Part shown: piece by piece, positions 9,668 to 47,402 of the stretch
Numbering within the stretch: position 1 is the first letter of the stretch
Layout: each line of letters begins with the position of its first letter
Notes under the pieces: generated by a model
Told to the model about the DNA's origin: nothing
The model's database searches: none
The model's input: only the letters and a program-made list of their open reading frames with translations
IMG/VR virus record: IMGVR_UViG_3300045256_000094
Direction: 5' to 3' (one strand)
DNA from: a virus
Length of the DNA: 64,000 bases
Translations under genes and position numbers: made by a program

Positions 9668-10417
9668 ATGCTCACGTTCAAAGAGTTCATGATGGCCGAA
9701 AGCGGTGGGTTCGGGGGAAGCACCCGATACGGCACCGGCACGGGCCGAACTTTCTCGCTGGGTAGGGGCATGTTGCACAACCGGCAGGCCGCTTCCAGAA
9801 TGTACTCGCCGAAGCCGCCCATCGGTGTTGACTTCGATGCGTGGTTCCACCACCACCTAAGTAACATAGCAAACGTCTTGGAGTTCTTGTACCACCGTTA
9901 CGAGGCCAACGACCTTGTGGTGGTCAACAAGAAGTTGTGTTTGGCCTCCTCGGAGATCGAACACTGGCACGAGCATACCGTGAAGAAGCTCATTCAGAAC
10001 GGCGTGCTGGTGCAGATGCCGTCCCAGAACGTGATGTGCCGCTGGCTGGAGCGTGACCTGTCGGACTCGGTGCCCAGCTTTGAACACCACCAGCCGGTTG
10101 CGGCGAAAGACGGCACGACCAAAGCTAAGAGCATGTTCTTCACCACCGAGGAGACGCTGAACCGCCTCGCCCAGAACCCGGAAATGGTGGCAGAACTGCG
10201 TGAATGGATCGCACACGGGCGTATGGCAAAAGAAGCCACGCCGCTGACGGGGATTGTGTTCTACGCTGTGGACACGCAGCGGATCGTACTCCTCATGCAG
10301 CGGCAACAGGACATCGCCGGGGCCATGAACGTCGCAGGTCAGGCAACGAACCTCGCCTTCCAGCCGGGTGCCTACCAAGCAAACCCAAACTCGAACGTAA
10401 GATTTTCAGGACACTAA
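9668..10417 (+). CDS. hypothetical protein with the MxTFKEF N-terminal motif
   Basis: Starts MLTFKEFMMAE. Its stop overlaps the next start (TAATG). Confidence 0.5.
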   Translation: MLTFKEFMMAESGGFGGSTRYGTGTGRTFSLGRGMLHNRQAASRMYSPKPPIGVDFDAWFHHHLSNIANVLEFLYHRYEANDLVVVNKKLCLASSEIEHWHEHTVKKLIQNGVLVQMPSQNVMCRWLERDLSDSVPSFEHHQPVAAKDGTTKAKSMFFTTEETLNRLAQNPEMVAELREWIAHGRMAKEATPLTGIVFYAVDTQRIVLLMQRQQDIAGAMNVAGQATNLAFQPGAYQANPNSNVRFSGH

Positions 10418-10836
10418 TGACTACCTTCAGAGAATTCATTAACGAGCAAGATGAAGACCCCTATCAGGAGTTCCTGAAGATGCGTCAGGGCTTGGGCTGG
10501 GGCGATCTGAAACAAGCCCCTCGTGGCACCGCTGCGGCCGTGGAAGAGACGCCGCCGCCGACTCGGGCCGGGACACGCAACCCGCTGGAAGTGAAACTCT
10601 CCAACGAAGTCCAGACCGGGCACAAGATGGGCGGCGTGGTATCACGAGCGGTCATCGCCCGTATGACGGCGAACAACCCGGAAGCCCTCCGCTCGTTCAT
10701 CGCCCCTGACCGCCTCAAGGCCGGTCAGGCTTACCCGTTCATCCAACAGCGTCAGGCCGGTCGGGATGTCGGCGGCATCGTGTACAACCAGATGTTCCCG
10801 CTGCACAGCCTGCTCCGGCTCCTCAACCTTCACTAA
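10417..10836 (+). CDS. hypothetical protein with the MTTFREF N-terminal motif
   Basis: Starts MTTFREFINEQ; the ATG at 10417 overlaps the upstream stop codon. Confidence 0.5.
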   Translation: MTTFREFINEQDEDPYQEFLKMRQGLGWGDLKQAPRGTAAAVEETPPPTRAGTRNPLEVKLSNEVQTGHKMGGVVSRAVIARMTANNPEALRSFIAPDRLKAGQAYPFIQQRQAGRDVGGIVYNQMFPLHSLLRLLNLH

Positions 10837-11633
10837 ATGATGGCCGCTAACTCCCTGGTGCCTTGCTGATACCATCTCAGGTATTCATCAATCGCCAGGG
10901 ATTTTTTTATGCGCATCGGCCGTCGCTCTAGGGTTTTGGATTTGTCTTCCGGCGGCGACGTGATGCCGTCAACCATACCAGCAATGCAATACAGATAGTC
11001 AGGATCATCGGTACTCAGGTACTTGTACAGGAAGTAGTCGAAGTGTGCCTTCGACTTCTCGTAGATGGTGCTGCCGCCCATGAACACGCCCTGGTCCCAC
11101 TCCGAGCCGTGCTTACGCAACGTCATGTACACGTCCCGGTACTTGTGGTAGCAGAAGAACTTCCCCCTGACGACGTGTTTGCCAATCGTCGGCTTGGTCA
11201 AGTAGTTCTGGATGCAGGTGTACCCGGCAGCCGTGAGCCGGTGGAAGTGTTCCACGTCGGGCGTCGGGCTGTCCACGAACGGGTAAACCCGCATGATCTC
11301 CGTGCGCAACACTTTCAGTGCGAGGATGCGTTTCTCAGTGAGCGTATCCCAGAGCGGGAACAGGATCGAGTGCCAGTTCGGATCATGGGAGTATTTGTCA
11401 ATCGCCCGGTTGATCCGCTCGAAGGCGTCGGGTTCAAGGATCATGTCGGCGTCCAGCGGCACGAGGTACGGGGTGCTGGCCGACAGCAGCATCAGGTTGA
11501 GGGCTTTGATCTGCGGTGTGACGTTCCTCACTTCCCGGAACTCGATCTGGTCCCGAAAGGGGGCGATGGCGGCAAGGCACTCTTTTTCCGTCTCCTCGCC
11601 GCACGTCATTAAACAGAAAGTCACTCGCTTCAT
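10833..11633 (-). CDS. putative glycosyltransferase (GT-A-like, DxD motif)
   Basis: 266 aa; LVPLDADMIL is a DxD-like motif. Confidence 0.45.
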   Translation of the reverse strand: MKRVTFCLMTCGEETEKECLAAIAPFRDQIEFREVRNVTPQIKALNLMLLSASTPYLVPLDADMILEPDAFERINRAIDKYSHDPNWHSILFPLWDTLTEKRILALKVLRTEIMRVYPFVDSPTPDVEHFHRLTAAGYTCIQNYLTKPTIGKHVVRGKFFCYHKYRDVYMTLRKHGSEWDQGVFMGGSTIYEKSKAHFDYFLYKYLSTDDPDYLYCIAGMVDGITSPPEDKSKTLERRPMRIKKSLAIDEYLRWYQQGTRELAAII

Positions 11634-12598
11634 GGCGTCAAAACGTAATCTACGAACTCGATCTCCATGTCCTTAATGAAACCCTCCTGCCGGTCCGACG
11701 GAATCTGTTGCTGATCCCAGACCAACTGCTTGAAGGCGGGCACGAGGAAGAAGTCGCTGAGCGGCGTCCTCTGGAACACTTCCTTAACGATCTTGAACTG
11801 GTGGAACCAGTAGTGGTAAGCCCGGATGGGGTCGATCTCCGGCCTCGTAAACATCTGCTCGTAACCCTTCTCGGCCAACTCCTCCCAGGACAGGAACAGG
11901 TGGATGAAGGCCCGGTTGAGTCCGGTCTTAAACAAATGACTGGCGTGTTTCGCACACCAGGGGTGGCAGCGGACGTAGACCACGCCCTTCGGCTTGAGCA
12001 GGCTCTTAACGTGGTTCATCACGTCAACTGGATCGTGGACGTGATCCAAAACGTCGTAGAGGAAGATGACATCGTAGTGTCCCTTCGTCAGCGACTTCCT
12101 GTCCGTAGTGAAGACCACGTTGCTCGGGTGCTTCTTCCAGGTCGGCGATTCCACGATGTCGTAGCCGGTCGTTGACACGACGCCCCGCTTCAGCACCCCG
12201 GCCGTGATCCACCCTTCGCCACAGCCGTAGTCCAAGAAGTGTAGTCCGTCCAGAGAGCCGGAAAGGGTCATGTCCAACACCGCCGTCGCCCGGTTGACCT
12301 GATCCTGGTCGTTCGGGGCACGCATCAGGTGGTTGGGCACAGCCAGCGGCCAACAGTCGATGGAGAACAGTTCCTCGGCGTGCTTCCGTCTGGCCTCTTT
12401 GTAAAGACGCTGTTCCTCTGCGACCTTCCTGTTGTGTTCTTCAAGTTGTTTGGCGTCCGCCTCGGCCTGTTGCTCGGGGGTCAACGCCTGGGCGACCACG
12501 GCCGGTTCTGGTGTAACCGGCTTGCCGAGTTGTTCTTCAATCTTGTCGCACGCCCGGCGGATGACTTCGAGGTACTTTCTTACTGCCTGCTCGTCCAT
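11630..12598 (-). CDS. class I SAM-dependent methyltransferase (paralog 2) with N-terminal coiled coil
   Basis: FLDYGCGEGW, DVLDHV and EFVDYVLTP. The start was trimmed to MDEQAV, which gives a TAATG overlap with the upstream gene. Confidence 0.72.
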   Translation of the reverse strand: MDEQAVRKYLEVIRRACDKIEEQLGKPVTPEPAVVAQALTPEQQAEADAKQLEEHNRKVAEEQRLYKEARRKHAEELFSIDCWPLAVPNHLMRAPNDQDQVNRATAVLDMTLSGSLDGLHFLDYGCGEGWITAGVLKRGVVSTTGYDIVESPTWKKHPSNVVFTTDRKSLTKGHYDVIFLYDVLDHVHDPVDVMNHVKSLLKPKGVVYVRCHPWCAKHASHLFKTGLNRAFIHLFLSWEELAEKGYEQMFTRPEIDPIRAYHYWFHQFKIVKEVFQRTPLSDFFLVPAFKQLVWDQQQIPSDRQEGFIKDMEIEFVDYVLTP

Positions 12599-13401: not shown

Positions 13402-13418
13402 ATTGTAATAGAGGAAGA

Positions 13419-14420
13419 ATGCACCAAGAACAGTGGAACGAGTTAGCAAAATACGGGCAGCAGCTTGATTTCAACCTGAAGCGGCTCAACGAAACCAAAG
13501 ACGAGATCGTCAGGGTTCAAGCTATTCTGCAATCCATCATCCAATTGCAGAACAACGACCTGCGGGTAGCTGTGAACCGGCTGGCCGACAGGTTCACCCT
13601 CATGGAACAGCAACTTGCCAACCACGGGCTGCCCAAGATCGACTACTACGACCACGAATTCACGTCGATCAGGAAGCTCGCTGAAAGCCCCGACTGGCCC
13701 CTCGCCGTCGAGGAGATGGTCCGAGACGAGAACTACGAGAAGGCGAAGGCGGCGAACATCCTCGACATGATCGTGATCGAGAACGTGGCCGGAAAGCGTG
13801 TCCTTGATTTCGGTTGTGGCGAAGGCTACCTCACGTCGGCCATCGCAACCAGGGGTGCGGCACTCGCCGTCGGGTACGACCCGGCAGGCAAAGACGAGCG
13901 GTTCCAGAACAAACTCTTGACTAAGGACAAGCTCGTCGCCGCCAACAACGCCCCGTATGACTTCATCGTAGTCTATGATGTGCTGGATCACTGCGAAGAC
14001 CCGGTGGCCGCACTGAAGTTCATTGAGGACTTGGCGTCCATGCAGACGAAGGTGATCGTCCGCAACCACCCGTTCAGTTCCCGCCACGGCAAGCACCTGT
14101 TCACGACCCTCAACCGGGCATTCTTACACATGGTTCTCGACGACATCGAGCTAGTGCGGCTGTGCGGGTCGGCTGGAATGCCGACCAGACCGATCCTGCG
14201 GCCCGTGGCCGAGTACCGTGGGTGGCTCGCCAACACCAAGTTCAACATCGAATTGGAGACGCCGGTGACGACCCCGGTCGAACCGTTCTTCTTGAACCCG
14301 GACAACTACCTCGTCCGGGACAAGCTGGTCGGGAAGTACCAGGGGGAAGACCCGACCCGTTACATGCAAATCGACTTCATGGATTACGTCCTAAAGAAGC
14401 GGACGCAGGTTGTTATATGA
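13419..14420 (+). CDS. class I SAM-dependent methyltransferase (paralog 3)
   Basis: VLDFGCGEGY, DVLDHC and DFMDYVLKK. A GAGGAAG ribosome-binding site lies upstream of the MHQEQW start. Confidence 0.72.
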   Translation: MHQEQWNELAKYGQQLDFNLKRLNETKDEIVRVQAILQSIIQLQNNDLRVAVNRLADRFTLMEQQLANHGLPKIDYYDHEFTSIRKLAESPDWPLAVEEMVRDENYEKAKAANILDMIVIENVAGKRVLDFGCGEGYLTSAIATRGAALAVGYDPAGKDERFQNKLLTKDKLVAANNAPYDFIVVYDVLDHCEDPVAALKFIEDLASMQTKVIVRNHPFSSRHGKHLFTTLNRAFLHMVLDDIELVRLCGSAGMPTRPILRPVAEYRGWLANTKFNIELETPVTTPVEPFFLNPDNYLVRDKLVGKYQGEDPTRYMQIDFMDYVLKKRTQVVI

Positions 14421-15201
14421 TGACCTTCCGGCCTCGCATCCCCTCAACGATGTCACGCAGCTTGGGGATGTTGGGCCAGAACTTGTCCCTGGACGGCAGG
14501 TTGTTGAATTGCTTAACATCGGCCGGGACGGTCTTGTGAACCCTGTACTCGGCCAACAGATTATACTTCTTACAAATCTGGTTGGCCTCCTCGATGGAGG
14601 ACTCGTAGGTGAGGTTGTTACGGTAGTAGTTGTCGCCGTGGAAGCACGCCCTGGTGTGGACGGCGGGCGTCTCGTCAATAATTCCGATCTTGTCCGTCGG
14701 GTTCCCCAATACCATGTTCCACATGAACTCGATGCCCCAATGGGAGTCGTTCTCAGTGAAGGTGTGCTTGAGAGCCTGGAGGCAGACCCGTGAGTAGATC
14801 GGGCACATGATCTCCACCCAATTCGTGAACCGGACTCGGGAGAACGGGACGGCGGCACTGATGGGGATCGAGATGAAGCCGATGATGCCGGGTTGGGCCA
14901 GCATCAGGTCGAACTCCTTGAACGTCCTGAACATCTGGCAGACGCCCTCTGCACTGAGGTAAATGTCGTCGTCCGGCACCCAGATGTTCTGGTAGTGATC
15001 GAGCAAGTCCGGGTTCGCTTCCAGGGCTTGTAACAGAATCTTGTACTTCGTACCCTTGTAGGTCGAGTAGAAGTTCCCTTCCTTCTCGTACCGCCCGGCG
15101 ATCTCGCCGTAGTAGTTGATGTAAACGTCGAAGTCCGGGCAGTGGAGCCAGTGCTGGTGGAGGGAGGAGTCACCAGCGGCGACGAACACGAGATTTTTCA
15201 T
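14413..15201 (-). CDS. putative glycosyltransferase (DUF707-like)
   Basis: 262 aa; IWVPDDDIYL acidic motif. Confidence 0.45.
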   Translation of the reverse strand: MKNLVFVAAGDSSLHQHWLHCPDFDVYINYYGEIAGRYEKEGNFYSTYKGTKYKILLQALEANPDLLDHYQNIWVPDDDIYLSAEGVCQMFRTFKEFDLMLAQPGIIGFISIPISAAVPFSRVRFTNWVEIMCPIYSRVCLQALKHTFTENDSHWGIEFMWNMVLGNPTDKIGIIDETPAVHTRACFHGDNYYRNNLTYESSIEEANQICKKYNLLAEYRVHKTVPADVKQFNNLPSRDKFWPNIPKLRDIVEGMRGRKVII

Positions 15202-15932: not shown

Positions 15933-15955
15933 GACCTAAAAGAGAAGGGGACCGC

Positions 15956-20014: not shown

Positions 20015-20943
20015 TGGAATGCGTTGTCTACCACTGGTGGGCAGAGGACTACGATGCCCAGCCCGCAGAGAACCTGCGCACCCCGCTCATCCACTCCATC
20101 GCCAGCCTGCGTGCGGTTGACAAGACCATCCCGGTTTACGTCCTAGACGGCAGCAAGAAGCCGCTCAACTGGCACTACTGGTCGAGCAGCCTGCGGTTCA
20201 AGCTGATCCCGATCACCTTCAGTTACGAAGAGAAGTACGCCGACAAGCCCGGCTACAAGAACTTGTCCCGGATCGAGGACATCTGGAAGTGCGAGCTTCC
20301 CGAGGAGAAGATCATCTACTCGGACGCCGACGTGTTCTGGATCAAGAGTCCCAGGCCGACGACGTTCGACGGCCAGCGGTTCACCTTCAACAAATACAAC
20401 AGCGGTTTCTTTTACTACGACAAGACATCGCCGCTGGTCAAGGACTTCCACGAACTGTGGCACGCCTACATCATCACGGCGTTGAACGACGAGAACTTCC
20501 GAATCCTGAGCCGTCAGTACACAGACTACCGGGAGTGGTACTTCGTGCTGGACGAGACGGTGCTAACGTACATGGCGTACAAGCTGCCACGGTTCTTCGA
20601 CATCGTGGACACGAACGAACACTGCACCCTGGGCATGGCGGCTCAGCAGATGCCGTCGCCCGACAAGATCAAAATGTTCCACACGCACGGCGTCCTGGTC
20701 AAAGACGTGTTCACACACAGCGAACATGCCCGTGGACTGACGCCCCTGTTGATTAAGGAATGCTGGGACTCGCTCCAGGGACTCGGCGAAGAGAAGGTGA
20801 AGCAGTTGTACCGGCCGCAATACCTGGAGAAGTACCTTCCGTACCAGCGGTCCCTGTTCGACCCCGAGTTCGAGAAGGTACTTCGAGAGAGTAAAAACGA
20901 AAAGGGCTTGTGCCGGTTGACACAAGCCCTGCGGGTTACTTGA
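20014..20943 (+). CDS. hypothetical protein, nucleotide-sugar-transferase-like
   Basis: Starts MECVVYHWW with a TAATG overlap on the upstream stop; contains IYSDADVFWI. Confidence 0.4.
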   Translation: MECVVYHWWAEDYDAQPAENLRTPLIHSIASLRAVDKTIPVYVLDGSKKPLNWHYWSSSLRFKLIPITFSYEEKYADKPGYKNLSRIEDIWKCELPEEKIIYSDADVFWIKSPRPTTFDGQRFTFNKYNSGFFYYDKTSPLVKDFHELWHAYIITALNDENFRILSRQYTDYREWYFVLDETVLTYMAYKLPRFFDIVDTNEHCTLGMAAQQMPSPDKIKMFHTHGVLVKDVFTHSEHARGLTPLLIKECWDSLQGLGEEKVKQLYRPQYLEKYLPYQRSLFDPEFEKVLRESKNEKGLCRLTQALRVT

Positions 20944-21693
20944 GAAGGTCTAACTCGCCCTTCATGATCGCCTTGATGTTCGTCACCTTCTTGTTGGTCC
21001 GGTGATCGGTAACTCGACTCTCCATGAAGTTGTAGGTTCTGATCTTCTGCCCACGGCTGCCGTCGCCGAGCGTCTTGCGACGGAACTCGGAGTATTCCTT
21101 GTCGGCGGCTGCCTTCCGTTTGTCCTGAACACGGGCCGTCATGATCCTGATGGCGTCCCGCTTGTTGGAGTGCTGGTCCCGGCCGTTAATGAACACCGTG
21201 ATGCCAGTCTCCTTGTGCTTCACCCGCACGGCACTCTCGGTCTTGTTCTGGTGCTGACCACCAGGACCGTGCCCGCACTGAGTCGTCACTTCGTACTCGT
21301 CTTCCTTGATCGGCTCCCACACGTCCTCCTTGATCGGCAGGACGCCGACGGAGATCATGGAAGTTTGTTTACGGCCTTTGGATTCCGTCTCCGGGACACG
21401 CTGGCAGCAGTGACCGCCGCTCTCGCTCTTGAAGGCATCCCAGACCCCGTTGCCGGTGATCTTGGCGATGCAGTGCCCTTCGGACGTGTGAATCAGTTCA
21501 GACTTGAAGCCCTTCGTGTTGGCGTACTTGATGTACGCTGCGAAGAGTTCATCGACGAATATCTTGGAGTCCGCACCGCCCTCCCCGAACCGTAGTTCGA
21601 GGATGATTTCTTTGGCCTGCTCAAAGACTCCTCCACTTGTCCCCCATCTTCTTCATGGGGTCAAAGCGACCCCCTATTGTTGTGCTTACTCAT
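20936..21693 (-). CDS. class I release factor lacking domain 1 (RF1-like PxT = PET; PrfH-like architecture), with programmed +1 frameshift(s) in its leader
   Basis: The body aligns to RF1 domains 2-4: LELRFGEGGADS...IAKITGNGVWDAFKSESGGHCCQRVPETESKGRKQTS...GPGGQHQNKTESAVRV...RTYNFMESRVTDHR. The RF frame has no ATG/GTG/TTG upstream of M(21358) back to a TGA. The leader holds ATG(21691-21693)...AGGGGG-TCG-CTT-TGA-C followed by ATG AAG AAG ATG...GGAGGAGT-CTT-TGA-G. Confidence 0.7.
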
Positions 21694-32233: not shown

Positions 32234-33706
32234 ATGCAGTCATTCTTCGAAATGTCCGAATTGCTGGAGAACTTCGAGTATCTTCAGGAATCGGCAGCGG
32301 GCCTCGCCAGGATTATTGATCGGATTGCCGGGGATGCAGACGAGGCTATCAAGCCTTACATCGCACAGGTAATCCAAAAGGGTTACAAGGGTGGCGTTCA
32401 CAGCCTCGCCGACCTGGAGAAAGGGGCGGCGGACAAGAAGAAGCTGCACGCAGCCCTCCACTACCTCGCCGAGAAGGACATCGTTGACTTCGGTGAAAAC
32501 GGCACGTTCAAGGTGGCCGATATTAACGCACACGCTGGTACTGGCGGTAGTGCCCTGAAGGGTGCTAAGGCTGGCGTCCTGTCCCGGAAGATGCTGGGTC
32601 ACGGCGACGGCCAGAAGACGCACGGCGAGTACGGCTCCAAGTTGGATCAAGTCAAGGCGAAGTACCCGAAGCACGCCCGGACCTTTGACATGATCTTTGC
32701 CAGCCCGAACTGGAAGCAGATGATGGCCGGTAAGCCTTACCGGGCCGAGGACATCGCTCCTGGTGTTGATCCTGGTCAACTCATGGGTGCCCTGGACGTT
32801 CTGCGGCACGAAGAGATCGTCGGCTTCGCCGGTGAGCCGAAGCCGGATACCATTGTTAAGGCACGAAAGTACGCCGACGCCGTGGAGAATGACCTGGACC
32901 GGGCAGCCAAGCAGTTCCCTCAGTACGCTCAGGTGTTCCAGGCCATTATGAAGACCGGGGCATGGCGGCGTCTGCAAGGTGGCAGCCCGATCCTGGCGGC
33001 TAACCTGTTGGGCGTCGGGGCGAGCGGCGGCGATTTCAATGCCAACGTCGAGCTACAACTGAAGGCTCTGATGGCACTGAAACACATGGGCATTATCCAC
33101 TTCGAGGGAGACAAGCCGACCCTGAAGACGCCGGTCACGAAGGGTGCCGGTGAAGTGGACGCAGCCAACGCCTACAAGGGTCCGAACCGGGCTTCTGACG
33201 CAGCACAGGCGATGGCAGGTGCGGAATCCAAGCCGGGCACCCGGTTGGCGGACAAGCAGACGGTGGTTAGCGGACAGAACAAGATGCACGGCGGCTCCGC
33301 TCAAGAGAAGATGGCACCGGGCAAGGTTGCGGCAGCGGCGGGCATGTACCAAGACGACCCGACGCAGGCGATCTCTCGTGAGTGGTGGCACGGCTGGACG
33401 ACGGCAATGCAGGCCGTCGAACGTGACCCGACGCTTTGGAATAACGAGAAGTGGCTGGGTCAACTCCAACAGCACACCGTCACGACTTTGCAGAACATCG
33501 CCGGTCAGATCAAGCGAGCCATCGACGGCGGTGCCCCTCGGGAGCAGGTGAAACCGATGTTGACGAACTTCTTCATGATCGCTTCGCCGAACAACTCGGA
33601 ACACAAGCCAATCGAGATGTTCCCAGGCATTGCCGGAATGGCGAACAAGTTGAAAGCCCTGTACGACGGGGCGTACAAGCGGACGGCAACCGTCCCTGGG
33701 TACTAA
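32234..33706 (+). CDS. large hypothetical protein (Ala/Gly/Gln/Lys-rich; possible virion or internal protein) with N-terminal MQSFFEM
   Basis: 490-aa ORF followed by an intrinsic terminator. Confidence 0.5.
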   Translation: MQSFFEMSELLENFEYLQESAAGLARIIDRIAGDADEAIKPYIAQVIQKGYKGGVHSLADLEKGAADKKKLHAALHYLAEKDIVDFGENGTFKVADINAHAGTGGSALKGAKAGVLSRKMLGHGDGQKTHGEYGSKLDQVKAKYPKHARTFDMIFASPNWKQMMAGKPYRAEDIAPGVDPGQLMGALDVLRHEEIVGFAGEPKPDTIVKARKYADAVENDLDRAAKQFPQYAQVFQAIMKTGAWRRLQGGSPILAANLLGVGASGGDFNANVELQLKALMALKHMGIIHFEGDKPTLKTPVTKGAGEVDAANAYKGPNRASDAAQAMAGAESKPGTRLADKQTVVSGQNKMHGGSAQEKMAPGKVAAAAGMYQDDPTQAISREWWHGWTTAMQAVERDPTLWNNEKWLGQLQQHTVTTLQNIAGQIKRAIDGGAPREQVKPMLTNFFMIASPNNSEHKPIEMFPGIAGMANKLKALYDGAYKRTATVPGY

Positions 33707-34272: not shown

Positions 34273-35151
34273 CTACATCAATTTCTCGCCAGTCCTCCAC
34301 ACACCCTTCGCCGCTTTGTACTTCCTGTCCAAAGACTCCAACTTCGCCATATCCATGTTGGCCTGATTGCTCTTAAGCTTCCCGCCGTTGAAAAACAACT
34401 CGATCATCCGCTCACGGGGCAGGTGGTTGGCACTCTTGTCGTCCACTTTCGGTGCCCAACCGAGCCGGGCGAGGAACTGCAACATGGCGTCGGGATCGTA
34501 CCCGGCGTTCTTATAGTGAAGCATCGACGTGCTGCCCTCACTCTTGCTGAGCAGCTTGCCGCCCTGGGAGATCAATCCGACGTGGGCGAACTTCGGGATG
34601 GGTGCCCCGAGCAGGTGGAACAGCACGACCTGCTTGCTGGTGTTGGTGATGTGGTCGGTGCCCCGGAGGATGTAGTTGATCCCCATATCCATGTCGTCCA
34701 CCACGGACGACCAGTTGTAGGTCGGGGTGCCGTCGCTCTTAATCAACACCATCTCGTGCATGCGGTTGAGATCGTCGTCGGTGATCTTCACGTCACCCAC
34801 AACCTCGTCGTGCCATGTCCTCGGGACTTCCTTGAAGTCCAGGTGGCTGACGTAAAGGGTCAACGCACCGTCCCGGTCGGAAACGTTGGGCAGCAGGTCG
34901 ATGGCCTCCCGGTGACGCTTGAACCGCTCGCTCTGGCGGAACGTCCGGTCGTGGTTGAGGCCGAGCCAGTCCATGATGTCGTGGATGACCTTCACTGAGT
35001 CTTCGTTGTTACGCTTCTGGTCCGTGTCGTCAATGCGGAGGGTGAAGGTGCCGCCGCTCGCTTTAGCGGCGAGCCAGTTGAAGTACGCCGTCCGGGCCGT
35101 GCCGATGTGAAGATCGCCGGTCGGGGACGGGGCAATTCGGGTGTGAAACAT
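34273..35151 (-). CDS. glutamyl-Q tRNA(Asp) synthetase-like protein (GluRS catalytic domain without anticodon-binding domain)
   Basis: RIAPSPTGDLHIGTAR (HIGH), DGTPTYNWSSVVDDMDMGINYILRGTDHITNT and KLLSKSEG (KMSKS-like); 292 aa. Confidence 0.72.
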   Translation of the reverse strand: MFHTRIAPSPTGDLHIGTARTAYFNWLAAKASGGTFTLRIDDTDQKRNNEDSVKVIHDIMDWLGLNHDRTFRQSERFKRHREAIDLLPNVSDRDGALTLYVSHLDFKEVPRTWHDEVVGDVKITDDDLNRMHEMVLIKSDGTPTYNWSSVVDDMDMGINYILRGTDHITNTSKQVVLFHLLGAPIPKFAHVGLISQGGKLLSKSEGSTSMLHYKNAGYDPDAMLQFLARLGWAPKVDDKSANHLPRERMIELFFNGGKLKSNQANMDMAKLESLDRKYKAAKGVWRTGEKLM

Positions 35152-35948: not shown

Positions 35949-36149
35949 TCAAAATCCCTCATTCTGCCAATCCACCTTTTCTCGTTTGGCCGGTTTCACC
36001 GGGGTGTACCAGCCGCCGATCAGGTAGATGTCCGGGAAGTAGGGCCGGGGCCGGACCGTCGCCTTCATCCGCTCCCGGTACACTGAGTCAAGGTACGTTG
36101 CGGCGACGAAGTAGAACGCCATGCTGCCGAGGATAGCCATTTCCAGCAT
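35949..36149 (-). CDS. small hydrophobic protein ending ...REKVDWQNEGF
   Basis: 66 aa; member of the C-terminal WxxEGF group. Confidence 0.5.
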   Translation of the reverse strand: MLEMAILGSMAFYFVAATYLDSVYRERMKATVRPRPYFPDIYLIGGWYTPVKPAKREKVDWQNEGF

Positions 36150-37293: not shown

Positions 37294-37560
37294 TCAAAAT
37301 CCTTCCTGCGTCCATTCAGGATGTCCGCAGTCTAAACCATATTCCCATTCAAAATCAAGTGCAGCGTGCGCTCCGTCAAGCCACTTCGGACGGTCCGCTG
37401 GACTCGACGAACTGGAAGACGATGTTCTGGTCCGGGTTGAACTCGCCGCAGAGGATGTCTCTGCTTTGACCGCCGGTAAGGTCTTTCCGCAGAATGACCC
37501 GAAATACTTGTTCTGCATCGTCCACCGTAATCCCCTGATCCGAGAACAAATCCTTAACAT
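37294..37560 (-). CDS. questionable ORF ending ...PEWTQEGF (overlaps the 37376-37627 gene in another frame)
   Basis: The C-terminal 24 aa carry the WxxEGF motif. The N-terminal part is a low-complexity alternate frame. Confidence 0.3.
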   Translation of the reverse strand: MLRICSRIRGLRWTMQNKYFGSFCGKTLPAVKAETSSAASSTRTRTSSSSSSSPADRPKWLDGAHAALDFEWEYGLDCGHPEWTQEGF

Positions 37561-37701: not shown

Positions 37702-38469
37702 CTAGCTGGACAGACGCTTGCGGACGAGGAACAGGCCGAACGCCGCCGGGATGCCCGAAGCCATCAGTGCGATGCTGCTCGGCTCGGGCGTGGTGATGGT
37801 CGGCGGGCCGTGCGGGTTCGGGTGATCGTTGCAATCCTTGTCATCATGACAGTGGCCCTTCGTGGGGCAGTGGATGGTGCAGATCGGCGGGCAAAAACGA
37901 TTGCACCAGTCGTGGTCTTCAGGGTAGGTGGTCGTCCAGTTGTTGATGATGGTCGGACCGTAGTTGATGAACGTGTCGCCGTTGATGATGGTCGGACCGT
38001 AGTTGATGATCGTCGAGGGCGGCGAGGCGAAGACGGTCGGCGGGCCGTACCGGAAGCCGCCCCCAAACCCCCAGCCTAAACCCCACCCGAGGCCACCGAA
38101 GAACGGGGACGGCGGCGTGTAGAAGAACCTGTTGATCGGCCCGCCCCCGGTCATCGGACCGAACCAGGAGTCGTGGCCGGTGGGCGGCAGACCCGAGTCG
38201 TAGTAGCCGTACAGCGGGACGCTGCCGCCGCTGTACTCTTCTTCACTAAGGACAACCTGCTTGTCGTCGGGGATGGGGATCGGACCGAGCGGGACGGTCG
38301 GGCAGAGGGGGATGGGCGGGCAGGGCAGGCACTCGAAGTAGAAGAACTGCGGCGGCGGGCAGTGGTAGAACCGGATGGGCGGCTCGCACCGGGGTCGGCC
38401 GAGCAGGAACCCGGCCTGGGTTTGGGCCACCATCAGCAGTGGCAGGACGGCGGACAGGAGCAGTCGCAT
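37702..38469 (-). CDS. secreted Cys/Pro/Gly-rich protein with PEP-CTERM sorting signal
   Basis: Signal peptide MRLLLSAVLPLLMVAQTQAG; internal repeats (I)INYGPTIIN; C-terminus TTPEPSSIALMASGIPAAFGLFLVRKRLSS. Confidence 0.62.
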   Translation of the reverse strand: MRLLLSAVLPLLMVAQTQAGFLLGRPRCEPPIRFYHCPPPQFFYFECLPCPPIPLCPTVPLGPIPIPDDKQVVLSEEEYSGGSVPLYGYYDSGLPPTGHDSWFGPMTGGGPINRFFYTPPSPFFGGLGWGLGWGFGGGFRYGPPTVFASPPSTIINYGPTIINGDTFINYGPTIINNWTTTYPEDHDWCNRFCPPICTIHCPTKGHCHDDKDCNDHPNPHGPPTITTPEPSSIALMASGIPAAFGLFLVRKRLSS

Positions 38470-39701: not shown

Positions 39702-40295
39702 TCAAAATCCCTCTTCTTTCCAGTTCACCTTCTCTCTCGGCTCACTGACTTTCTTGAATGTGTTTACTTCGTCGTCCACGGCGATGCGGACGAATTGAGG
39801 CGGCATGACGACCGGGGCAGAGTTAACGAACCCGAACCGAGACAGGCGGCTGCGGCGGTTCTCGTACCGATCCATCTCCCGCTGGTACTCTCGCTCGTTA
39901 CTGGTGCGAACCGGCCTCTCGTTCATGACTTCCCGGAAGAAGGTATTAGAGTTATGCGCCCATTCGCCCATCATCTCTCGGCGGAACCGCTCGGACTGCT
40001 CCCGGAAATTCCGCTGGGATTCAGTCTCGTTGCTCCGAAGGTTCTGTAAGACGGCCTTGATCGAGGCCAACAGGCTCGCACCGCTTTCATCCTGCCGAGT
40101 CAGCGTGCGGTCCTGGTAGGCAACAATCCGGTCGGAGACGGCTTCCCTCAATCGGAAGTCCCGTCTCCCGCCGTACTCGTTAGATAGGATTGATAAGGCT
40201 TGGTTCTGGTCGCCGGACGTGCCGACTTCCCGCCACTCGCCGTTGAACATCACTTCCATGCGATACCTGTACCAAATGTCGTCGTTGTAGCTCAT
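39702..40295 (-). CDS. hypothetical protein (Arg/Glu-rich) ending ...REKVNWKEEGF
   Basis: 197 aa; member of the WxxEGF group. Confidence 0.5.
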   Translation of the reverse strand: MSYNDDIWYRYRMEVMFNGEWREVGTSGDQNQALSILSNEYGGRRDFRLREAVSDRIVAYQDRTLTRQDESGASLLASIKAVLQNLRSNETESQRNFREQSERFRREMMGEWAHNSNTFFREVMNERPVRTSNEREYQREMDRYENRRSRLSRFGFVNSAPVVMPPQFVRIAVDDEVNTFKKVSEPREKVNWKEEGF

Positions 40296-41086: not shown

Positions 41087-41113
41087 GTCGCATCCTCCAG
41101 ATGCCACAATCTA

Positions 41114-41556: not shown

Positions 41557-41997
41557 CTACGTCCCCTCTGGTCTGCCCGCCTTCCCCTTGCTCCGGTTCT
41601 GGAGGTTCAAGTAGAAAGCAAAGGTCTGGCGGTTCGGAACCGACTTGTTGCCGTCGATGCCCCTGAACACCAGCTTTAGTTTAGTGTTGTCGTTCTCATA
41701 TGGCAAGATGTCTTTCAACCGGGAAAGCACGCTCGCAATGAACGGCCATGTGCCGGTGATCCGAATCCCGTCCTCACCATACGACGACTTGCTCGGCCCG
41801 CCTTCGTTGCCATCCTTCATCGGCTGGATGTAAACGGGCAGGTCCGGGCGTAGTTTCTTCCAGATGTCGAGAATTTCCGCCTTCTTGGCAGACCAACTCT
41901 GGTGCGAGACGCCTTGAACGCCCGCACCAGAGTCGAATGCCTGTTGAGCGAACTCGACGAACTCCTGTTGCTCGAAGAACTCCTTGAAACTACCCAT
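41557..41997 (-). CDS. hypothetical protein with N-terminal MGSFKEFFEQQEF
   Basis: 146 aa; member of the N-terminal FKEF group. Confidence 0.5.
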   Translation of the reverse strand: MGSFKEFFEQQEFVEFAQQAFDSGAGVQGVSHQSWSAKKAEILDIWKKLRPDLPVYIQPMKDGNEGGPSKSSYGEDGIRITGTWPFIASVLSRLKDILPYENDNTKLKLVFRGIDGNKSVPNRQTFAFYLNLQNRSKGKAGRPEGT

Positions 41998-42005
41998 GCC
42001 AGTAT

Positions 42006-42452
42006 TTAGCTGGCACGGATTTGTTTCACGGCTGCCCCGACGGTATTTCCGTCAACGGCGAGGTTCTTCCCCTTCAGGAGCTTCATCGCCACGCCCGTCG
42101 CCTGCCCGTCGGACTTCGCCGCCTTGATGTCGCCCTGGACGGAAGCGAGTTCCGCCAGGACTTGATCGAGGGACAGCATCACCGGCAGGTAGCCCGTCAG
42201 GATCACGTTCTCCTGCGTCAGCTTGGCGTGCCGGGGGTCGGTCGTCGGCAGGTGCCCCAGCGACTCCGTGTTGCCCTCGATGGCCTTACGGATGACGCCG
42301 AACACCATCTCGTCGGTCGCCGTCTTGCTCTGGCGGATCGCCAGTGACTCGGTTTCGGCGACCACGACCTTCAGCGTGTCCCGGCGCACCGTGTCGCCGA
42401 ACTTCATTGCGGCCGTGATCTCAGCCCGCATCTGCTCGATCAACTTGCTCAT
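42006..42452 (-). CDS. GatB/YqeY-domain protein
   Basis: MSKLIEQMRAEITAAMKFGDTVRRDTLKVVVAE. Shares an ATGA overlap with the upstream CCA-enzyme stop. Confidence 0.62.
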   Translation of the reverse strand: MSKLIEQMRAEITAAMKFGDTVRRDTLKVVVAETESLAIRQSKTATDEMVFGVIRKAIEGNTESLGHLPTTDPRHAKLTQENVILTGYLPVMLSLDQVLAELASVQGDIKAAKSDGQATGVAMKLLKGKNLAVDGNTVGAAVKQIRAS

Positions 42453-43696
42453 GTCATCAGCCTCCGATCTTCGAGGTAGTGGTTCACCTGGAGTTCCCTG
42501 ATCTTCTTCCCCATCTCCGGCCCAGGGGCAATCCCGTACTTCTCCTGCACTTCCGCCCCGGTGATCTCCGGGAGTTCGTACACGCACAGGTGTTCGAGCC
42601 GTTCCGGGCAGAACGGGACGATCTTCGAGAACTCCGTCAAGCTCTCCCGGAACCCCGGCCTGTTACGCAAGGCCAGGGACGCCTTCACCATGTCGTCCAT
42701 CTTCGGCTCGGACGCACGGCAGGCGTTGTTCGTTTCCACCAAGAAGGCCACCAGATCGAACACATCGGCGGGCCACTTGGCTTCGAGGAGCTTGGCCTTC
42801 ACCAAATTCCCCTTCGGCACGTCGCTCAGAATCACCCCTAACACGACGCTCGGGTTCTTACAGTTCCCGACCTGTGCAGCGTGTGCCCGGCTGTGGTTCA
42901 GTTCGGGCAGCACTTCGTCCATCAGGCCCAGCCCGTACAGGTTGAGCAAGTACGAACGAGTCCTGACCGACTGCTTCAGCCCGGCAAGGAACTCCTGCTG
43001 GATACGCTCCTTGCTGATCGGCTGGAGGGTGCGCTGCCCCAGGTGGTGCGGGCAGGGCTGGTTCAGACGCCGGTAGTAGTCCAGAGCCGAGTAGGTCTGG
43101 TCAGTCAACTGGCCGTCGCCCTCTTGCAGCACCGTGTCGTTGAACCGGGAGAAGAACCGAACCAACCGCAAGATGCGGAGCCGGTCTTCACCGAGTCGCC
43201 TCCACGGATCGCCGATGGTGCGGACGTGCTTGAACATCACGTCGTTGATCCCGCACGAGTAGTCGAGGACTTCCCCGCTCCCGATGTCGTAGAACAACCC
43301 GTTGATGGTCAGGTCACGCCGGTAGTGATCGGCCTCTAGGTCACGGGTGTAAGTCACCTTGTCCGGGTGACGCCCGTCCCCGTCGGCCCCGTCGCTCCGC
43401 ATGGTGGCGATCTCGAAGTCCTCGCCGTCCAGGTGCGCCACCATGACCCCGAACGCCTCGCCCTTCTCGAAGCAGCGGATGTTGGCTTTCTTCAGTACAT
43501 CCGCTACCTCGAACGGCACGGCGTCAGTCACCACGTCCACGTCCTTCGACTTGAAAGGAAGGCCGTGAAAGCGAGCCAGGAGGAAGTCCCGGACGTAGCC
43601 GCCGACAGCGTAGAACCCGAACCCGGCGTCCTTGAAGACCTTGTGGAGCTTCTGGACGGGCTTGGGGACCGGGATGTCGAACTTGTGTCGTTGCAT
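42449..43696 (-). CDS. tRNA nucleotidyltransferase (CCA-adding enzyme)/poly(A) polymerase family with HD domain
   Basis: FYAVGGYVRDFLL...DVDVVT...GRHPD...RRDLTINGLFYD. Confidence 0.85.
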   Translation of the reverse strand: MQRHKFDIPVPKPVQKLHKVFKDAGFGFYAVGGYVRDFLLARFHGLPFKSKDVDVVTDAVPFEVADVLKKANIRCFEKGEAFGVMVAHLDGEDFEIATMRSDGADGDGRHPDKVTYTRDLEADHYRRDLTINGLFYDIGSGEVLDYSCGINDVMFKHVRTIGDPWRRLGEDRLRILRLVRFFSRFNDTVLQEGDGQLTDQTYSALDYYRRLNQPCPHHLGQRTLQPISKERIQQEFLAGLKQSVRTRSYLLNLYGLGLMDEVLPELNHSRAHAAQVGNCKNPSVVLGVILSDVPKGNLVKAKLLEAKWPADVFDLVAFLVETNNACRASEPKMDDMVKASLALRNRPGFRESLTEFSKIVPFCPERLEHLCVYELPEITGAEVQEKYGIAPGPEMGKKIRELQVNHYLEDRRLMT

Positions 43697-43744
43697 GGCT
43701 ACCTCCTCGCATTACAGACATTGTAACAGATGCGGGGTTCGCTG

Positions 43745-43780
43745 TAAAAGAAGAACACCGCCCGGTTTCCCAGGCGGTGT
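43745..43780 (-). terminator. rho-independent terminator (minus strand)
   Basis: acaccgcc / ggcggtgt stem followed on the minus strand by TCTTCTTTT. Confidence 0.4.
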
Positions 43781-44051
43781 CACGGAGTTTGTTCCCGGAG
43801 GGCACAACTGAGTTGCCAGTGAGGCTTTCGCCTCAAAGTGCCAACAGTTTGAAAGAATAAGGTTTGAAGCTTACAGTTTGACCCTTGACCACTTTAACGG
43901 TGCGGTAGGCTGTTGACGTTCGGCCTTTGAAGTAAAGGACCGCATGACCGTTTGCCGCTGTCTTGGGGTTCGGGTGTTAGCCCACGATTATTGTAGCTCA
44001 AACCCGTCAGCCGCCCTCCGGGACTCCTAACGCCGGTCGCCCGGCGTGTTC

Positions 44052-44513: not shown

Positions 44514-44534
44514 TCTGTTCTCCTTGTGTTTCCC

Positions 44535-45011
44535 TTACCGATGTTTCGCTTCGAGGATATCAGCGGGGCTGCTGACATGCAACTCGAAATGATGACGGGT
44601 CGCCCCGTCCCGCTTGTGATACTGCTTGGCCCACATCGGGGCACCCTTCTCCACGTCGCAGATCACGATCTCGTCTGCGGTGGAGGTAGCGGTTAGCTGA
44701 TACCGCTGCATCTTCTTGTTGGCTTGGTCGTAGGTGTAGACGCTGTAGCTGTACGTCGTCTTCTCGATCCCTACGATGTTCTTGATCTCGATCTCGTCCG
44801 GCCGCTGGATGATCGAGACGTTCTCGACTTCCGCTTTGACCTTCGGAGTGGGGCTTCCACAGCCCGAGGCGCACACCGCTCCGATGAACATGCCACCGAT
44901 TCCTGCGATCAGTACAGCGGCACGCACCGAAATCTCCCGCATCAACATCGGATGCTCGTGGATAGTGTGCGACTTAGTGAAATTTCGGGAAGACCAGTTT
45001 CGGAGAGACAA
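44535..45011 (-). CDS. putative lipoprotein/secreted protein
   Basis: Hydrophobic signal AAVLIAGIGGMFIGAVCASGCGSP with a lipobox-like ASGC. Confidence 0.45.
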   Translation of the reverse strand: MSLRNWSSRNFTKSHTIHEHPMLMREISVRAAVLIAGIGGMFIGAVCASGCGSPTPKVKAEVENVSIIQRPDEIEIKNIVGIEKTTYSYSVYTYDQANKKMQRYQLTATSTADEIVICDVEKGAPMWAKQYHKRDGATRHHFELHVSSPADILEAKHR

Positions 45012-45285
45012 CCCAGCCTACACGGCCTCCACCTTACGGCTTCAGCCTCGGCCAGATGTGAGTTCCACGGTACGGTCCCAGGTATTGCTACCTGGGGTGC
45101 CGTCGTTCGGCACGCTTGTCGCACACCCTTGCGGGGTACAGTACCCTAGCTATTACGCTTTGGGATCAAGCTCGCTATCACCCTTACGGTGTTCGCAACC
45201 TTAGACTCGTCAAGATGTAATCCCTCTACCTGTACCTGATTCATCACCAAGTACAAGCATCCTTGCGGACAGCATTCTTCCCGAG

Positions 45286-45356
45286 TAGCCCCTACAGGAG
45301 TCGAACCTGTTCGACCTCTTTAGGAAAGAGGCACGCTTCCGTCACATCCAGGGGCC
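45286..45356 (-). tRNA. tRNA-Arg (anticodon CCU)
   Basis: Hand-folded 71-nt cloverleaf: acceptor GGCCCCU/AGGGGCU, anticodon arm CCUCU-UUCCUAA-AGAGG, T-arm ACAGG-UUCGACU-CCUGU. The D-stem has two G·U pairs. Confidence 0.55.
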
Positions 45357-45462
45357 ATGCACTAAACCCTGTTTTGCCTCCCTGGGGGATGTGCAGTGCC
45401 GTGATACGGCTCCCCCAGGGAGGCTCAAGGGGAAGGAAACCCTCCCTTGATCCTTAACAGAG

Positions 45463-45792
45463 TTAAGTCTTGACGCAGAATCCGGTTCTCGGCCCGGTCG
45501 GCGTCTCTACCACTCGCCTCGGACATCCATACTGGATGAGCGCCCGAACGGCGATGGCAGCAACCTTACGCAACTGATCGAGTGCCGGTTCGTCGCCCGC
45601 ACTCAGGGTCCAGGCGTCTTCCGCCTTGCGGACGTAAGTCGCCAGAGTCACCAGTTGCCCTTCGACGCCGTGGTCCCGTGCGTCGGCTCGGCCGCTGCCC
45701 TTGAGGGTTGACTGGTAAGCCAACTCCTCATTGATCGCTTCAATCACTTCCGGGGTCATCGTGACCAGCGGAAGTCCTGTCGTGTTTCCCAT
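45463..45792 (-). CDS. hypothetical protein
   Basis: ORF trimmed to the Met (MGNTTGLPL) at 45792. Confidence 0.4.
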   Translation of the reverse strand: MGNTTGLPLVTMTPEVIEAINEELAYQSTLKGSGRADARDHGVEGQLVTLATYVRKAEDAWTLSAGDEPALDQLRKVAAIAVRALIQYGCPRRVVETPTGPRTGFCVKT

Positions 45793-45814
45793 ACTACATC
45801 CTTGTAGCTCGTTT

Positions 45815-45900
45815 GTAAAGAGTCGCCGGGTGGAGTCGAACCACTTAGCAGTGGTTTTGCAGACCACCGGCCCACCCCGAGCCTTTCGCTTCCGACGACC
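45815..45900 (-). ncRNA. tRNA-like element (T-arm GUGG-UUCGACU-CCAC, anticodon-like arm GUGGU-CUGCAAA-ACCAC); does not fold as a canonical tRNA
   Basis: An intergenic GGAGTCGAACC signature lies on the plus strand; the D region is too long for a standard cloverleaf. Confidence 0.25.
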
Positions 45901-46106
45901 TACTCTGTTCTTGGCTTAACCACCAGTGCTACCAGCTTGTCGCCGCACCACGCCGGTGCCCGAAGCATAGTCCACTGGTCGTGCGGATAGTGAGTGTTCA
46001 GTTTCGAGTACAAATCCGGCTCACTATCCGCCACCACGAACTCGGTGTCAATCCGTCGGCCTAGTCCTTGCAACTCTTCCAGGGTGATCGGCTGCCAGGA
46101 CATCAC
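45900..46106 (-). CDS. hypothetical protein
   Basis: MSWQPITLEELQGLGRRIDTEF...; the Met at 46106 overlaps the stop of the DUF2934 gene by ATGA. Confidence 0.35.
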   Translation of the reverse strand: MMSWQPITLEELQGLGRRIDTEFVVADSEPDLYSKLNTHYPHDQWTMLRAPAWCGDKLVALVVKPRTE

Positions 46107-46327
46107 TTCGCCGCTACACGGACACAGCCGTTGCTCGTAGGTTCGCCGAATTCCTCCACGGCCTCGTCGAGCGTGGCGTCCAGGGCGTCGGAGAACTCCT
46201 CGTCGAACTCGGACTCGGCCTGAAGCCAGAAGTCCACCCCGTCGCCCGGCGGGCTGCCAGCCTCTTCCCAGAGTTGGTAGGCCCGGACCCGGATCACATC
46301 TTCCCGACTCGTAACGACCTGCGACAT
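46103..46327 (-). CDS. DUF2934-family small protein
   Basis: VIRVRAYQLWEEAGSPPGDGVDFWLQAESEF. Confidence 0.5.
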   Translation of the reverse strand: MSQVVTSREDVIRVRAYQLWEEAGSPPGDGVDFWLQAESEFDEEFSDALDATLDEAVEEFGEPTSNGCVRVAAK

Positions 46328-46523
46328 GATTTGTTCTCCAAGACCCGATGGTTTTCCCGACATCGGTGAGGAGTTTATACCCGAAATCCAAGTCTGCGGC
46401 AAGAGTATTTACCGACGAGTGCAACTTTTTCGTCCGAAACCCGCCCCTCCGAAAAAACGAGAAACAGGCATAAAAAAATTCCGGGCAGCTTTCCTAACTA
46501 ATAGCAGCATTAGTGAGGTAAAA

Positions 46524-47402
46524 AACATGTACAGTTCGTTCCAAGAGTTCGTTCAAATTCGTGAAGCCAGAACTTGCGAGTCTTACTTAAACGCAGCCGC
46601 CTGGGCCATTAAAGAACAAGCCGAGGAAGTGGGCTTTGAGCTTGTCTTCGACAGCTTCGCAGAGTCCGTCGCACTCGTTTCCCCGGAAACCACCGAGAAG
46701 CAACTTCTTCAAGAGTTCTTGAGCAACCTGCTCAAGAAGGCCGGGAACATGGTCGGCCTGGGTGGACGGCCTCAACAGCCTGCCGCTCCTGCTAAGCCAG
46801 CCGGTCCGCAACTGAACCAAGACCAGATCATGAAGTTCAAGGGTGCCGCTCAGACCGTGAGCCAAGCCATCCAGAACGCCATGATGGCCGTCAACCAGAA
46901 GATCGCTCAGAACAAGGACAAGTACAGCTACGCTGTCATGCACGCCGTCCAGAACTCGATCCAGAAACTACTCCAGAAAGTCCAAACCGATCCGCAGTCC
47001 CTCGTGAAGCAAGCCGGTCAGGACTTCACCAACGGTATGAACACCGCCTTCGCTGGTGCCAACCCGCAGGCACAGGCTTCGACGGGCGACCGTTACAACT
47101 CCCTCAGCGAGCCGATGAAGCAACGCTACGCTCAGATGATCGCAAAGCAGATCGGTGCCACCGGCCAGGAAGCCGCAGTCGCCAACCTGCTGAACGCTGG
47201 TTTCACCAAGCCGGAGCAGATCAAGCAGCAGTTGATGAACGCTGGCAAGTTGCAGAACCCGCTGGGTGCAAACGCCAACGGCGCAACACAAGACATGGAC
47301 CCGGCATACAAGGCCAAGCTCGCAAGCATGGCAGGTCAGCCGACCCCGGCACGACCCGTGGCACGCCCAGGAGCAACAGCCACCCCGACCGCAGCAGTCT
47401 AA
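46524..47402 (+). CDS. Gln/Ala-rich hypothetical protein with N-terminal MYSSFQEF (possible scaffold or internal virion protein)
   Basis: A GTGAGGT ribosome-binding site sits upstream of the MYSSFQEF Met; the ORF is open from 46326. Confidence 0.5.
   Translation, partial: NMYSSFQEFVQIREARTCESYLNAAAWAIKEQAEEVGFELVFDSFAESVALVSPETTEKQLLQEFLSNLLKKAGNMVGLGGRPQQPAAPAKPAGPQLNQDQIMKFKGAAQTVSQAIQNAMMAVNQKIAQNKDKYSYAVMHAVQNSIQKLLQKVQTDPQSLVKQAGQDFTNGMNTAFAGANPQAQASTGDRYNSLSEPMKQRYAQMIAKQIGATGQEAAVANLLNAGFTKPEQIKQQLMNAGKLQNPLGANANGATQDMDPAYKAKLASMAGQPTPARPVARPGATATPTAAV

Follow-up and report, generated by a model that had tools for sequence, protein, structure and literature searches.

A T4-type capsid targeting leader is the probable common start of five otherwise unrelated proteins in an uncultivated phage

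Why do five genes on a fragment of a viral genome, encoding proteins without other resemblance, begin with nearly the same peptide? The question is raised by a stretch of 64,000 nucleotides from IMG/VR virus record IMGVR_UViG_3300045256_000094, referred to in the following as the window (the whole stretch of DNA that was analysed, at its full length). Five genes of the window, here named A249, B139, C490, D146 and E291, share the N-terminal motif M-x(1-2)-[ST]-F-[KRQF]-E-[FM]. Their products start with MLTFKEF (A249), MTTFREF (B139), MQSFFEM (C490), MGSFKEF (D146) and MYSSFQEF (E291). The shared peptide is, with good probability, a capsid targeting sequence (CTS) of the T4 type on cargo resembling the T4 internal proteins. 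Judged by sequence comparison, the leader most likely marks proteins that the phage packages and possibly injects. Coordinates, isoelectric points (pI) and candidate cleavage sites are collected in Table 1.

All five N-termini listed in an initial annotation of the window are present, four of them exactly as given. The start of E291 had been placed at 46524, where the codon is AAC; the real ATG lies at 46527, preceded by GTGAGG, and the motif itself is there, with one additional residue (M-Y-S-S-F-Q-E-F). A six-frame scan of the window with the core pattern [ST]F[KRQF]E[FM] returned six matches. Five are the gene starts at 9668, 10417, 32234 and 46527 on the plus strand and at 41997 on the minus strand. 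The sixth (14934, minus strand) is internal to a gene, and the chance expectation is roughly 0.4-0.5 matches by a hand estimate from composition. This sixth match was rejected as a member of the system, for its position in the middle of a protein and for a number that fits the chance expectation. Apart from it, the motif is confined to gene starts.

Counts of N-termini refer to the 104 gene calls in the window. The strict motif occurs at 5 N-termini against 9.5e-4 expected (Poisson 6e-18), the pattern having been set post hoc. A pattern fixed a priori from T4 mutagenesis, ^M.{0,2}[ST][FYW]..[FYWM], selects the identical five genes with 0.3-0.4 expected; at internal methionines of the window proteome it matches 4 of 419 positions. 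Relaxed patterns added a single protein of 71 amino acids starting with MTLKEWV, in which a leucine takes the place of the first aromatic residue and residue 2 is missing. It is a weak possible sixth member and was excluded from the finding. A chance pattern or an artefact of start-codon picking could appeal to the post hoc definition of the strict motif and to the one internal chance match. It is next to negligible in view of five genes observed against about 0.001 (strict) or 0.3-0.4 (a priori), the enrichment over background N-termini to which the initial annotation had tied its reading. In addition, independent gene callers picked the same starts in homologues, and the leader recurs in other genomes.

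Downstream of the leader the sequences diverge, as first annotated. Pairwise blastp among the five proteins gave E > 0.1 throughout, with or without the first 16 residues, and the best value after leader trimming was 0.13. Full-length paralogy, which had been named as a finding that would overturn the annotation, is absent by the same comparison. The tandem arrangement of A249 and B139, in which the B139 ATG overlaps the A249 stop codon (TAATG), would suit a family of diverged paralogues with the N-terminus as merely the best conserved part. Such a family is hardly credible: similarity does not extend past the leader in any pair, lengths range from 139 to 490 amino acids, and the proteins fall into distinct homologue families with differing predicted architectures. 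Pfam and PHROG scans of the five leader proteins gave no significant family. All five are hydrophilic, with pI values of 7.9-9.5 and a grand average of hydropathy of -0.34 to -0.62 over the whole protein. Two of them had been described as Ala/Gln-rich; this holds for E291 (A 16.5%, Q 11.7%, against 7.3% and 3.9% in the proteome) and only partly for C490 (A 14.3%, Q 5.5%). C490 and E291 are each a lone plus-strand gene amid minus-strand genes. A Sec or Tat signal peptide, with its basic n-region and its hydrophobic h-region of at least 10 residues, was rejected by reading the sequences: the leaders are acidic and aromatic (e.g., MGSFKEFFEQQEFVEF) and have no hydrophobic stretch.

The shared residues are written with different codons, and selection is therefore on the peptide. 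The Ser/Thr position is encoded by ACG, ACC, TCA, AGT and TCG in the five genes; the Lys/Arg/Gln position uses AAA, AGA, AAG and CAA, and the glutamate GAG and GAA. A DNA element near some of the genes has to be considered beside this result. The octamer CTAAATAC, which contains TAAATA and resembles the T4 late promoter TATAAATA, stands upstream of D146 and of C490. It is kept before D146 orthologues in five genomes, including L002, L142, L143 and the uncultured phage LR756511.1, at 5-12 nt from the ATG. CTAAATA is also found upstream of the C490 orthologue in L002, within an otherwise diverged spacer. Of the 17 leader genes of LR756511.1, 7 have TAAATA no more than 20 nt from the ATG, compared with 34 of the 1026 remaining genes (Fisher p = 1e-6). 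The window has two copies of CTAAATAC (0.47 expected), a count that 14 of 100 shuffles also reach and that is not significant; TAAATA occurs nine times against 4.7 expected, which is not significant alone. The octamer before D146 is a putative promoter. Elements of the form [CA]TAAATA often stand at only 5-12 nt from a start codon, and some transcripts may be near-leaderless.

These associations with TAAATA, in LR756511.1 and at the D146 orthologues, could also speak for conservation at the level of nucleotides or mRNA, i.e., a translation-initiation element for near-leaderless late transcripts or a recombination sequence that is read as peptide. This is very unlikely, because the codons differ among the five genes, with serine drawn from both the AGY and the TCN families and threonine from ACN, and because the DNA of homologues varies while the aromatic residues 4 and 7 persist. 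As a side observation, [CA]TAAATA also stands just upstream of other starts in the window, at 58701-58707 (plus strand) and 57676-57681 (minus strand), where it precedes a P-domain protein of 504 amino acids (58741-60255) and the ATG-57647 reading of open reading frame (ORF) 57150-57647.

The leader is retained in orthologues of three window proteins, C490, D146 and E291, down to 25-37% identity. For C490, a search of 5.8 billion proteins gave just three homologues; they are about 60% identical to it, and all begin with M[QK]SF[FL]EM..L[LV]E. For D146, 106 homologues were found, several on contigs of 150-690 kb. In most of them the start departs little from M-x-[ST]-F-[KR]-x-[FWY]; in many, ..FV[ED]F comes next, and a linker that differs in length then leads to a conserved KPWSAKK domain. 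Phe4 is at least 90% conserved in an alignment of 69 sequences of the D146 family. The homologues of E291 start with MYRSFQEYVGIRE (MYRSFQEY), MYKNFKEYYEGR (MYKNFKEY) and MYKSFKNYRQDRE (MYKSFKNY) at 72%, 31% and 25% identity, respectively. In L142, a closer relative, the genomic slot of E291 is occupied by a different Q/A/G-rich protein of 202 amino acids, which starts with MKTFTEY. D146 is the only leader protein with a homologue in LR756511.1; this orthologue starts with MLSFREW. A249 and B139 had no detectable relatives, and a search of metagenome contigs with A249 was empty. Searches with C490 in IMG/VR and with E291 by tblastn in phages gave no homologues. A near-identity DNA search with 20 kb of the window against known phages returned no match.

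The T4 CTS, MKTYQEFIAE, is removed by the prohead protease and is enough to package foreign proteins. The internal proteins of T-even phages are diverse, and the CTS alone is their common part. Amber-suppressor mutagenesis in T4 assigned residues 4 and 7 to targeting and residues 8 and 10 to processing; the T4 gp21 protease cleaves after L/I-x-E. Read directly from the T4 genes, IPI starts with MKTFKEFTSTTTPVSTITE (MKTFKEF), and IPII and IPIII start with MKTYQEFIAE. The window pattern, applied to 64 kb of T4, returned only ipI, ipII and ipIII. The T4 signal and the window leaders are nearly identical. All five window proteins have an N-terminal leader with residues of the T4 CTS type, and MLTFKEF of A249 equals T4 IPI at residues 3-7. 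Position 4 is a phenylalanine in all five, offset by one in E291; position 7 is a phenylalanine in four and a methionine in C490. These two positions are the best conserved, both among the window leaders and across the 106 D146 homologues. A hydrophobic-x-Glu site follows every leader. Read from the sequence, INE10, LLE12 and IRE13 are candidate sites of the strict L/I-x-E type, and MAE11 and FFE9/FVE15 are loose candidates of the form hydrophobic-x-E.

The likeness to the T4 internal proteins extends beyond single residues. In both systems, a leader of the form M-x-T-[FY]-[KQ]-E-F with aromatic residues 4 and 7 begins at Met1, and a hydrophobic-x-Glu site lies 10-19 residues in. The carriers are otherwise unrelated, basic and non-conserved, and some are in tandem: the layout of T4 ipII-ipIII parallels that of A249-B139, and tandem leader genes are found in IMG/VR as well. 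Relatives of the window phage encode head genes of the gp20, gp21 and gp23 types. Differences concern the leader, its putative site and the cargo. The window leaders do not have the conserved Lys2 of T4, often have serine for threonine and may have methionine for Phe7; the P3 residue of the putative site can be methionine or phenylalanine. The window phage is not a T-even phage; it belongs to a distant uncultivated lineage of high GC content (57%) that is kin to a 595-kb phage. Its putative cargo proteins reach 490 amino acids and have no similarity to any T4 internal protein.

Other T4 proteins are taken up by way of the scaffolding core and are cut by gp21 after L/I-x-E, namely Alt, gp22, gp67 and gp68. 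Their N-termini are different: the starts of Alt and of the scaffold and core proteins gp22, gp67 and gp68 (MELITELFDE, MLKEQLIAE, MEGLIEAIK and MLLIPETHE) do not contain the T-[FY]-x-E-F motif. The window proteins are thus closer to the internal-protein class of cargo than to scaffold, and the scaffold proteins suggested at first are disfavoured. The initial annotation had also suggested that the peptide might act in capsid targeting or as a propeptide, on the model of T4 and phiKZ. The T4 half of this proposal is supported by the near residue-by-residue match to the CTS, the aromatic residues 4 and 7, the glutamate site and the head genes in relatives; phiKZ is the poorer fit. In phiKZ, 201phi2-1 and SPN3US, propeptides at the N-termini of head and ejection proteins are processed by proteases of the gp21 family, gp175 or gp245. 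As proposed for the window leaders, these propeptides are removed after a glutamate by a gp21-homologous protease and are thought to target proteins into the prohead. In contrast to the window leaders, they are mostly longer than 100 residues, are cut at S/A-x-E and have no common M-x-T-F-x-E-F start; a shared N-terminus of 15 residues, MANFVKSKLARESVE, is found only in the paralogues gp53 and gp54. The conserved region of the window proteins spans 7-15 residues, and P3 is Ile, Leu, Met or Phe, not Ser, Ala or Gly. The cargo-loading peptides of encapsulins offer a further comparison: a short terminal peptide brings unrelated cargo into a shell of the HK97 fold. Encapsulin peptides are usually C-terminal, bind the shell, stay uncleaved and are unrelated in sequence to the window leaders.

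Relatives of the window phage that use the leader encode T4-type head genes. The 595-kb genome of LR756511.1 shares 28 of the 104 window genes at 27-64% identity and has a collinear block with the window (451-7807 against 198.9-205.3 kb). The six-frame scan gave 17 motif matches in this genome, 15-16 of them at ORF starts; the leader is found on 17 of 1043 gene calls against about 0.4 expected (hand estimate from composition). Its head genes include one for a T4-like portal (E = 3e-32), one at 525956-526621 for a gp21 protease, which is 35% identical to that of T4 and scores 96 bits with Pfam Peptidase_S77 (cut-off 27), and one for a Gp23 capsid protein, which reaches 291 bits in Pfam. The order of the head genes, 20...21-(310 aa)-23, is as in T4. 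Two further observations on this genome are recorded here. The portal gene (531014-533587, minus strand) encodes 857 amino acids with an apparent intein-like insert, and a second, diverged Peptidase_S77 paralogue (242243-243133, minus strand; Pfam 33.8 bits) is present, as reported for SPN3US-type giant phages.

The capsid-protein family of LR756511.1 has 7832 members. Among the best 80 capsid-gene loci, 23 leader-type gene starts were found, including loci at 53-54% GC; a 238,888-bp IMG/VR relative is not among these 80 loci. On the IMG/VR contig 3300020172_006270 (223 kb), a leader gene (MMTFKEFM) and the Gp23-type capsid protein of the clade occur together. A scan of IMG/VR for M-x-T-F-K-E-F-[IM] gave at least 120 stretches, nearly all at ORF starts. 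The 99 unique N-termini among the matches listed have Lys2 in 78 and Glu10 in 75 cases, though neither was imposed by the pattern. Clustered by downstream sequence, the leader heads at least 77 different proteins among the matches listed, and some of the genes are in tandem. At least one sampled leader locus is similar in DNA to T4-like cyanomyoviruses. The search for the tag in related genomes, which the initial annotation had put forward as a check, was thus positive in LR756511.1, in the orthologues of C490, D146 and E291 and in at least 120 IMG/VR stretches.

Several observations weigh against a T4-type loading signal. The window has no head gene or protease according to a PHROG scan of about three quarters of the predicted proteome and to T4 references: tblastn with T4 reference proteins found nothing, and phmmer gave one spurious weak match. 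Since the window itself, part of a contig of 169,027 bp, is without head genes, the protease and scaffold of its phage are inferred from relatives whose shared proteins are just 27-64% identical. The window leaders do not have the Lys2 that is typical of T4 and of the IMG/VR set; residue 7 of C490 is methionine and not aromatic; and two candidate sites (MAE; FVE or FFE) have Met or Phe in place of Leu or Ile at P3. The TAAATA element stands at only two of the five window leader genes, with a window-wide excess that is not significant, and a phmmer search of LR756511.1 did not detect gp55, the late sigma factor.

The five proteins could instead use the leader to bind some other partner that they have in common (a chaperone, for instance, or the portal, a membrane complex or a host protein); it would then be neither a capsid loading signal nor removed. 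The two deviations from L/I-x-E among the five candidate cleavage sites would agree with this, as would a second terminal tag of the same lineage, at the C-terminus. We consider it unlikely: the leader is near-identical to a T4 signal whose function was demonstrated by fusions and mutagenesis, genomes that carry it also have head modules of the T4 type, and a glutamate-terminated site follows all five leaders.

The C-terminal tag is an observation in its own right. W-x-x-[ED]-G-F has five six-frame matches in the window, each directly before a stop codon. The carriers are unrelated small proteins (e.g., ..EKVDWQNEGF, ..EKVNWKEEGF and ..FDWLKDGF, each followed by the stop), and none of the five has the N-terminal leader. 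The tag is kept in orthologues of L002 and L142, is found on other proteins in L143 and L144 and also occurs in L003. It was detected in 15 IMG/VR stretches (L145-L159), with at most three genes per locus and including the 238,888-bp relative. As a C-terminal tag, the motif is absent from LR756511.1 and from the 80 capsid-gene loci.

For the T4-type loading signal, the following sequence of events is proposed. By analogy with T4, a new copy of the protein would bind to the scaffolding core through about the first seven residues of its leader while the prohead is being built. This contact would be made by the aromatic residues 4 and 7, which probably lie on the same face of a short helix. Once the shell has closed, a protease of the gp21 family (Peptidase_S77) would cut after the glutamate of the hydrophobic-x-E site, which is reached 9-15 residues into the protein. 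The leader would exit, and the mature, mildly basic protein would stay in the head with the DNA and would probably be ejected into the host. The five genes would then represent the 'internal protein' cargo of the phage. Packaging, cleavage and ejection are inferred from the T4 precedent.

Structure models give hints on two of the proteins. An AlphaFold2 model of D146 (pLDDT 62) shows a small alpha/beta domain besides a helix at residues 4-22 and a linker without order. Compared with the PDB, it had no significant fold match; Alba-like matches had E above 0.2. The C490 model (pLDDT 61, pTM 0.29) had marginal matches to multi-winged-helix proteins (RPC62, SelB) with E = 3e-4 and a TM of about 0.16. 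The winged-helix likeness is a hint of nucleic-acid binding; with low confidence, it would fit a DNA-associated head protein. Separately, a helix-helix-strand-strand module seems to be repeated three times in C490 (..HYLAEKDIVDFGENGTFKV.., ..LRHEEIVGFAGEPKPDT.. and ..LKHMGIIHFEGDKPTLKT..); the low-confidence model draws these repeats as winged-helix-like domains.

Table 1. Positions of the leader genes and of further features in the window
Feature	Position	Strand	Description
A249	9668-10417	+	249 aa, pI 7.9; leader MLTFKEFMMAE at 9668-9700; candidate cleavage after MAE11
B139	10417-10836	+	139 aa, pI 9.5; leader MTTFREFINE at 10417-10446; INE10, exact T4-style I-x-E
C490	32234-33706	+	490 aa, pI 8.9; leader MQSFFEMSELLE at 32234-32269; candidate site LLE12
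D146	41557-41997	-	146 aa, pI 9.1; leader MGSFKEFFEQQEFVE at 41953-41997; candidate sites FFE9 and FVE15
E291	46527-47402	+	291 aa, pI 9.2, Ala/Gln-rich; leader MYSSFQEFVQIRE at 46527-46565; candidate site IRE13
CTAAATAC upstream of D146	42002-42009	-	5-12 nt before ATG; resembles T4 late promoter
CTAAATAC upstream of C490	32199-32206	+	28-35 nt before ATG
Internal chance match	14899-14934	-	MFRTFKEFDLML (MFRTFKEF); residue 90 of DUF707-like protein (14413-15201)
Weak possible sixth member	56925-57140	-	71 aa; MTLKEWVLDATRIDE (MTLKEWV); relaxed patterns only; excluded from finding
C-terminal-tag proteins	35949-36149, 37294-37560, 39702-40295, 53617-53901, 57686-57907	-	W-x-x-[ED]-G-F-stop
Translation-related set	20936-21358, 34273-35151, 42006-42452, 42449-43696, 52748-53116	-	Five loci, see text
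tRNA-Arg(CCT)	45285-45356	-	
tRNA-Ile(TAT)	54064-54155	-	Unusually long (92 nt)

The remaining gene content of the window comprises several conspicuous groups. The translation-related set consists of an RF-1-domain (GGQ) protein, a truncated class I Glu/Gln tRNA-synthetase-like protein (292 aa), a YqeY/GatB-like protein, a CCA-adding enzyme and a Pth2-like hydrolase. In the close relatives L002 (6369-7256) and L142 (16592-17470), a LAGLIDADG homing-endonuclease gene lies between an HNH endonuclease gene and the gene of a glutamyl-tRNA-synthetase-like protein. The window does not have it at the corresponding place (about 35.1-35.2 kb), which indicates a presence/absence polymorphism of a mobile element. 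Three methyltransferase-like paralogues (6890-7807 and 13419-14420, plus strand; 11630-12598, minus strand) have a single LR756511.1 gene (204.5-205.3 kb) as their common match and share the ending ..F[VM]DYVL[KT]. They lie in a 30-kb block (about 5-32 kb) rich in genes for glycosyltransferases and sugar modification. A Pro/Gly/Cys-rich protein of 255 amino acids (37702-38469, minus strand) has an N-terminal signal-like segment and a PEP-CTERM-like C-terminus (..TPEPSSIALMASGIPAAFGLFLVRKRLSS). Such a signal is unusual in a phage gene and may be a hint of the host.

The T4 mechanism is textbook knowledge. For new cargo, in a distant lineage that is uncultivated and has huge phages among its relatives, it appears to be undescribed: in the literature searched, for which coverage was incomplete, no paper was found on a CTS outside the T-even phages or on the string MKTFKEF. 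If the leader works in the same way here, the contact by which it docks on the scaffolding core would seem to have been conserved from T4 to huge phages. There is about an even chance that the T4 CTS is no peculiarity of the T-even phages but a portable signal of great age, used for loading by a very wide range of phages that have heads of the Gp23 type, among them genomes of 200-690 kb. The capsid-delivered proteins marked in this way would form a large, fast-changing set, part of which may be expressed from near-leaderless transcripts with TAAATA beside the start codon. If so, the set would amount to about 17 proteins per 595-kb genome and five in the 64-kb window.

Proteins carried in the head enter the cell with the DNA and are the first line of a phage against host defences; IPI* of T4 blocks the GmrSD restriction enzyme. 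In uncultivated phages, packaged proteins normally escape notice, being fast-evolving 'hypothetical proteins'. If the leader works as in T4, such cargo could be named from sequence: five proteins here, about 17 in the 595-kb relative and at least 77 in IMG/VR. The list of leader-bearing proteins provides candidates for anti-defence or DNA-condensing functions. If the signal is portable in the sense outlined above, a simple N-terminal profile could list thousands of packaged, probably injected proteins from metagenomes, and candidate anti-defence effectors and DNA-binding proteins would be among them.

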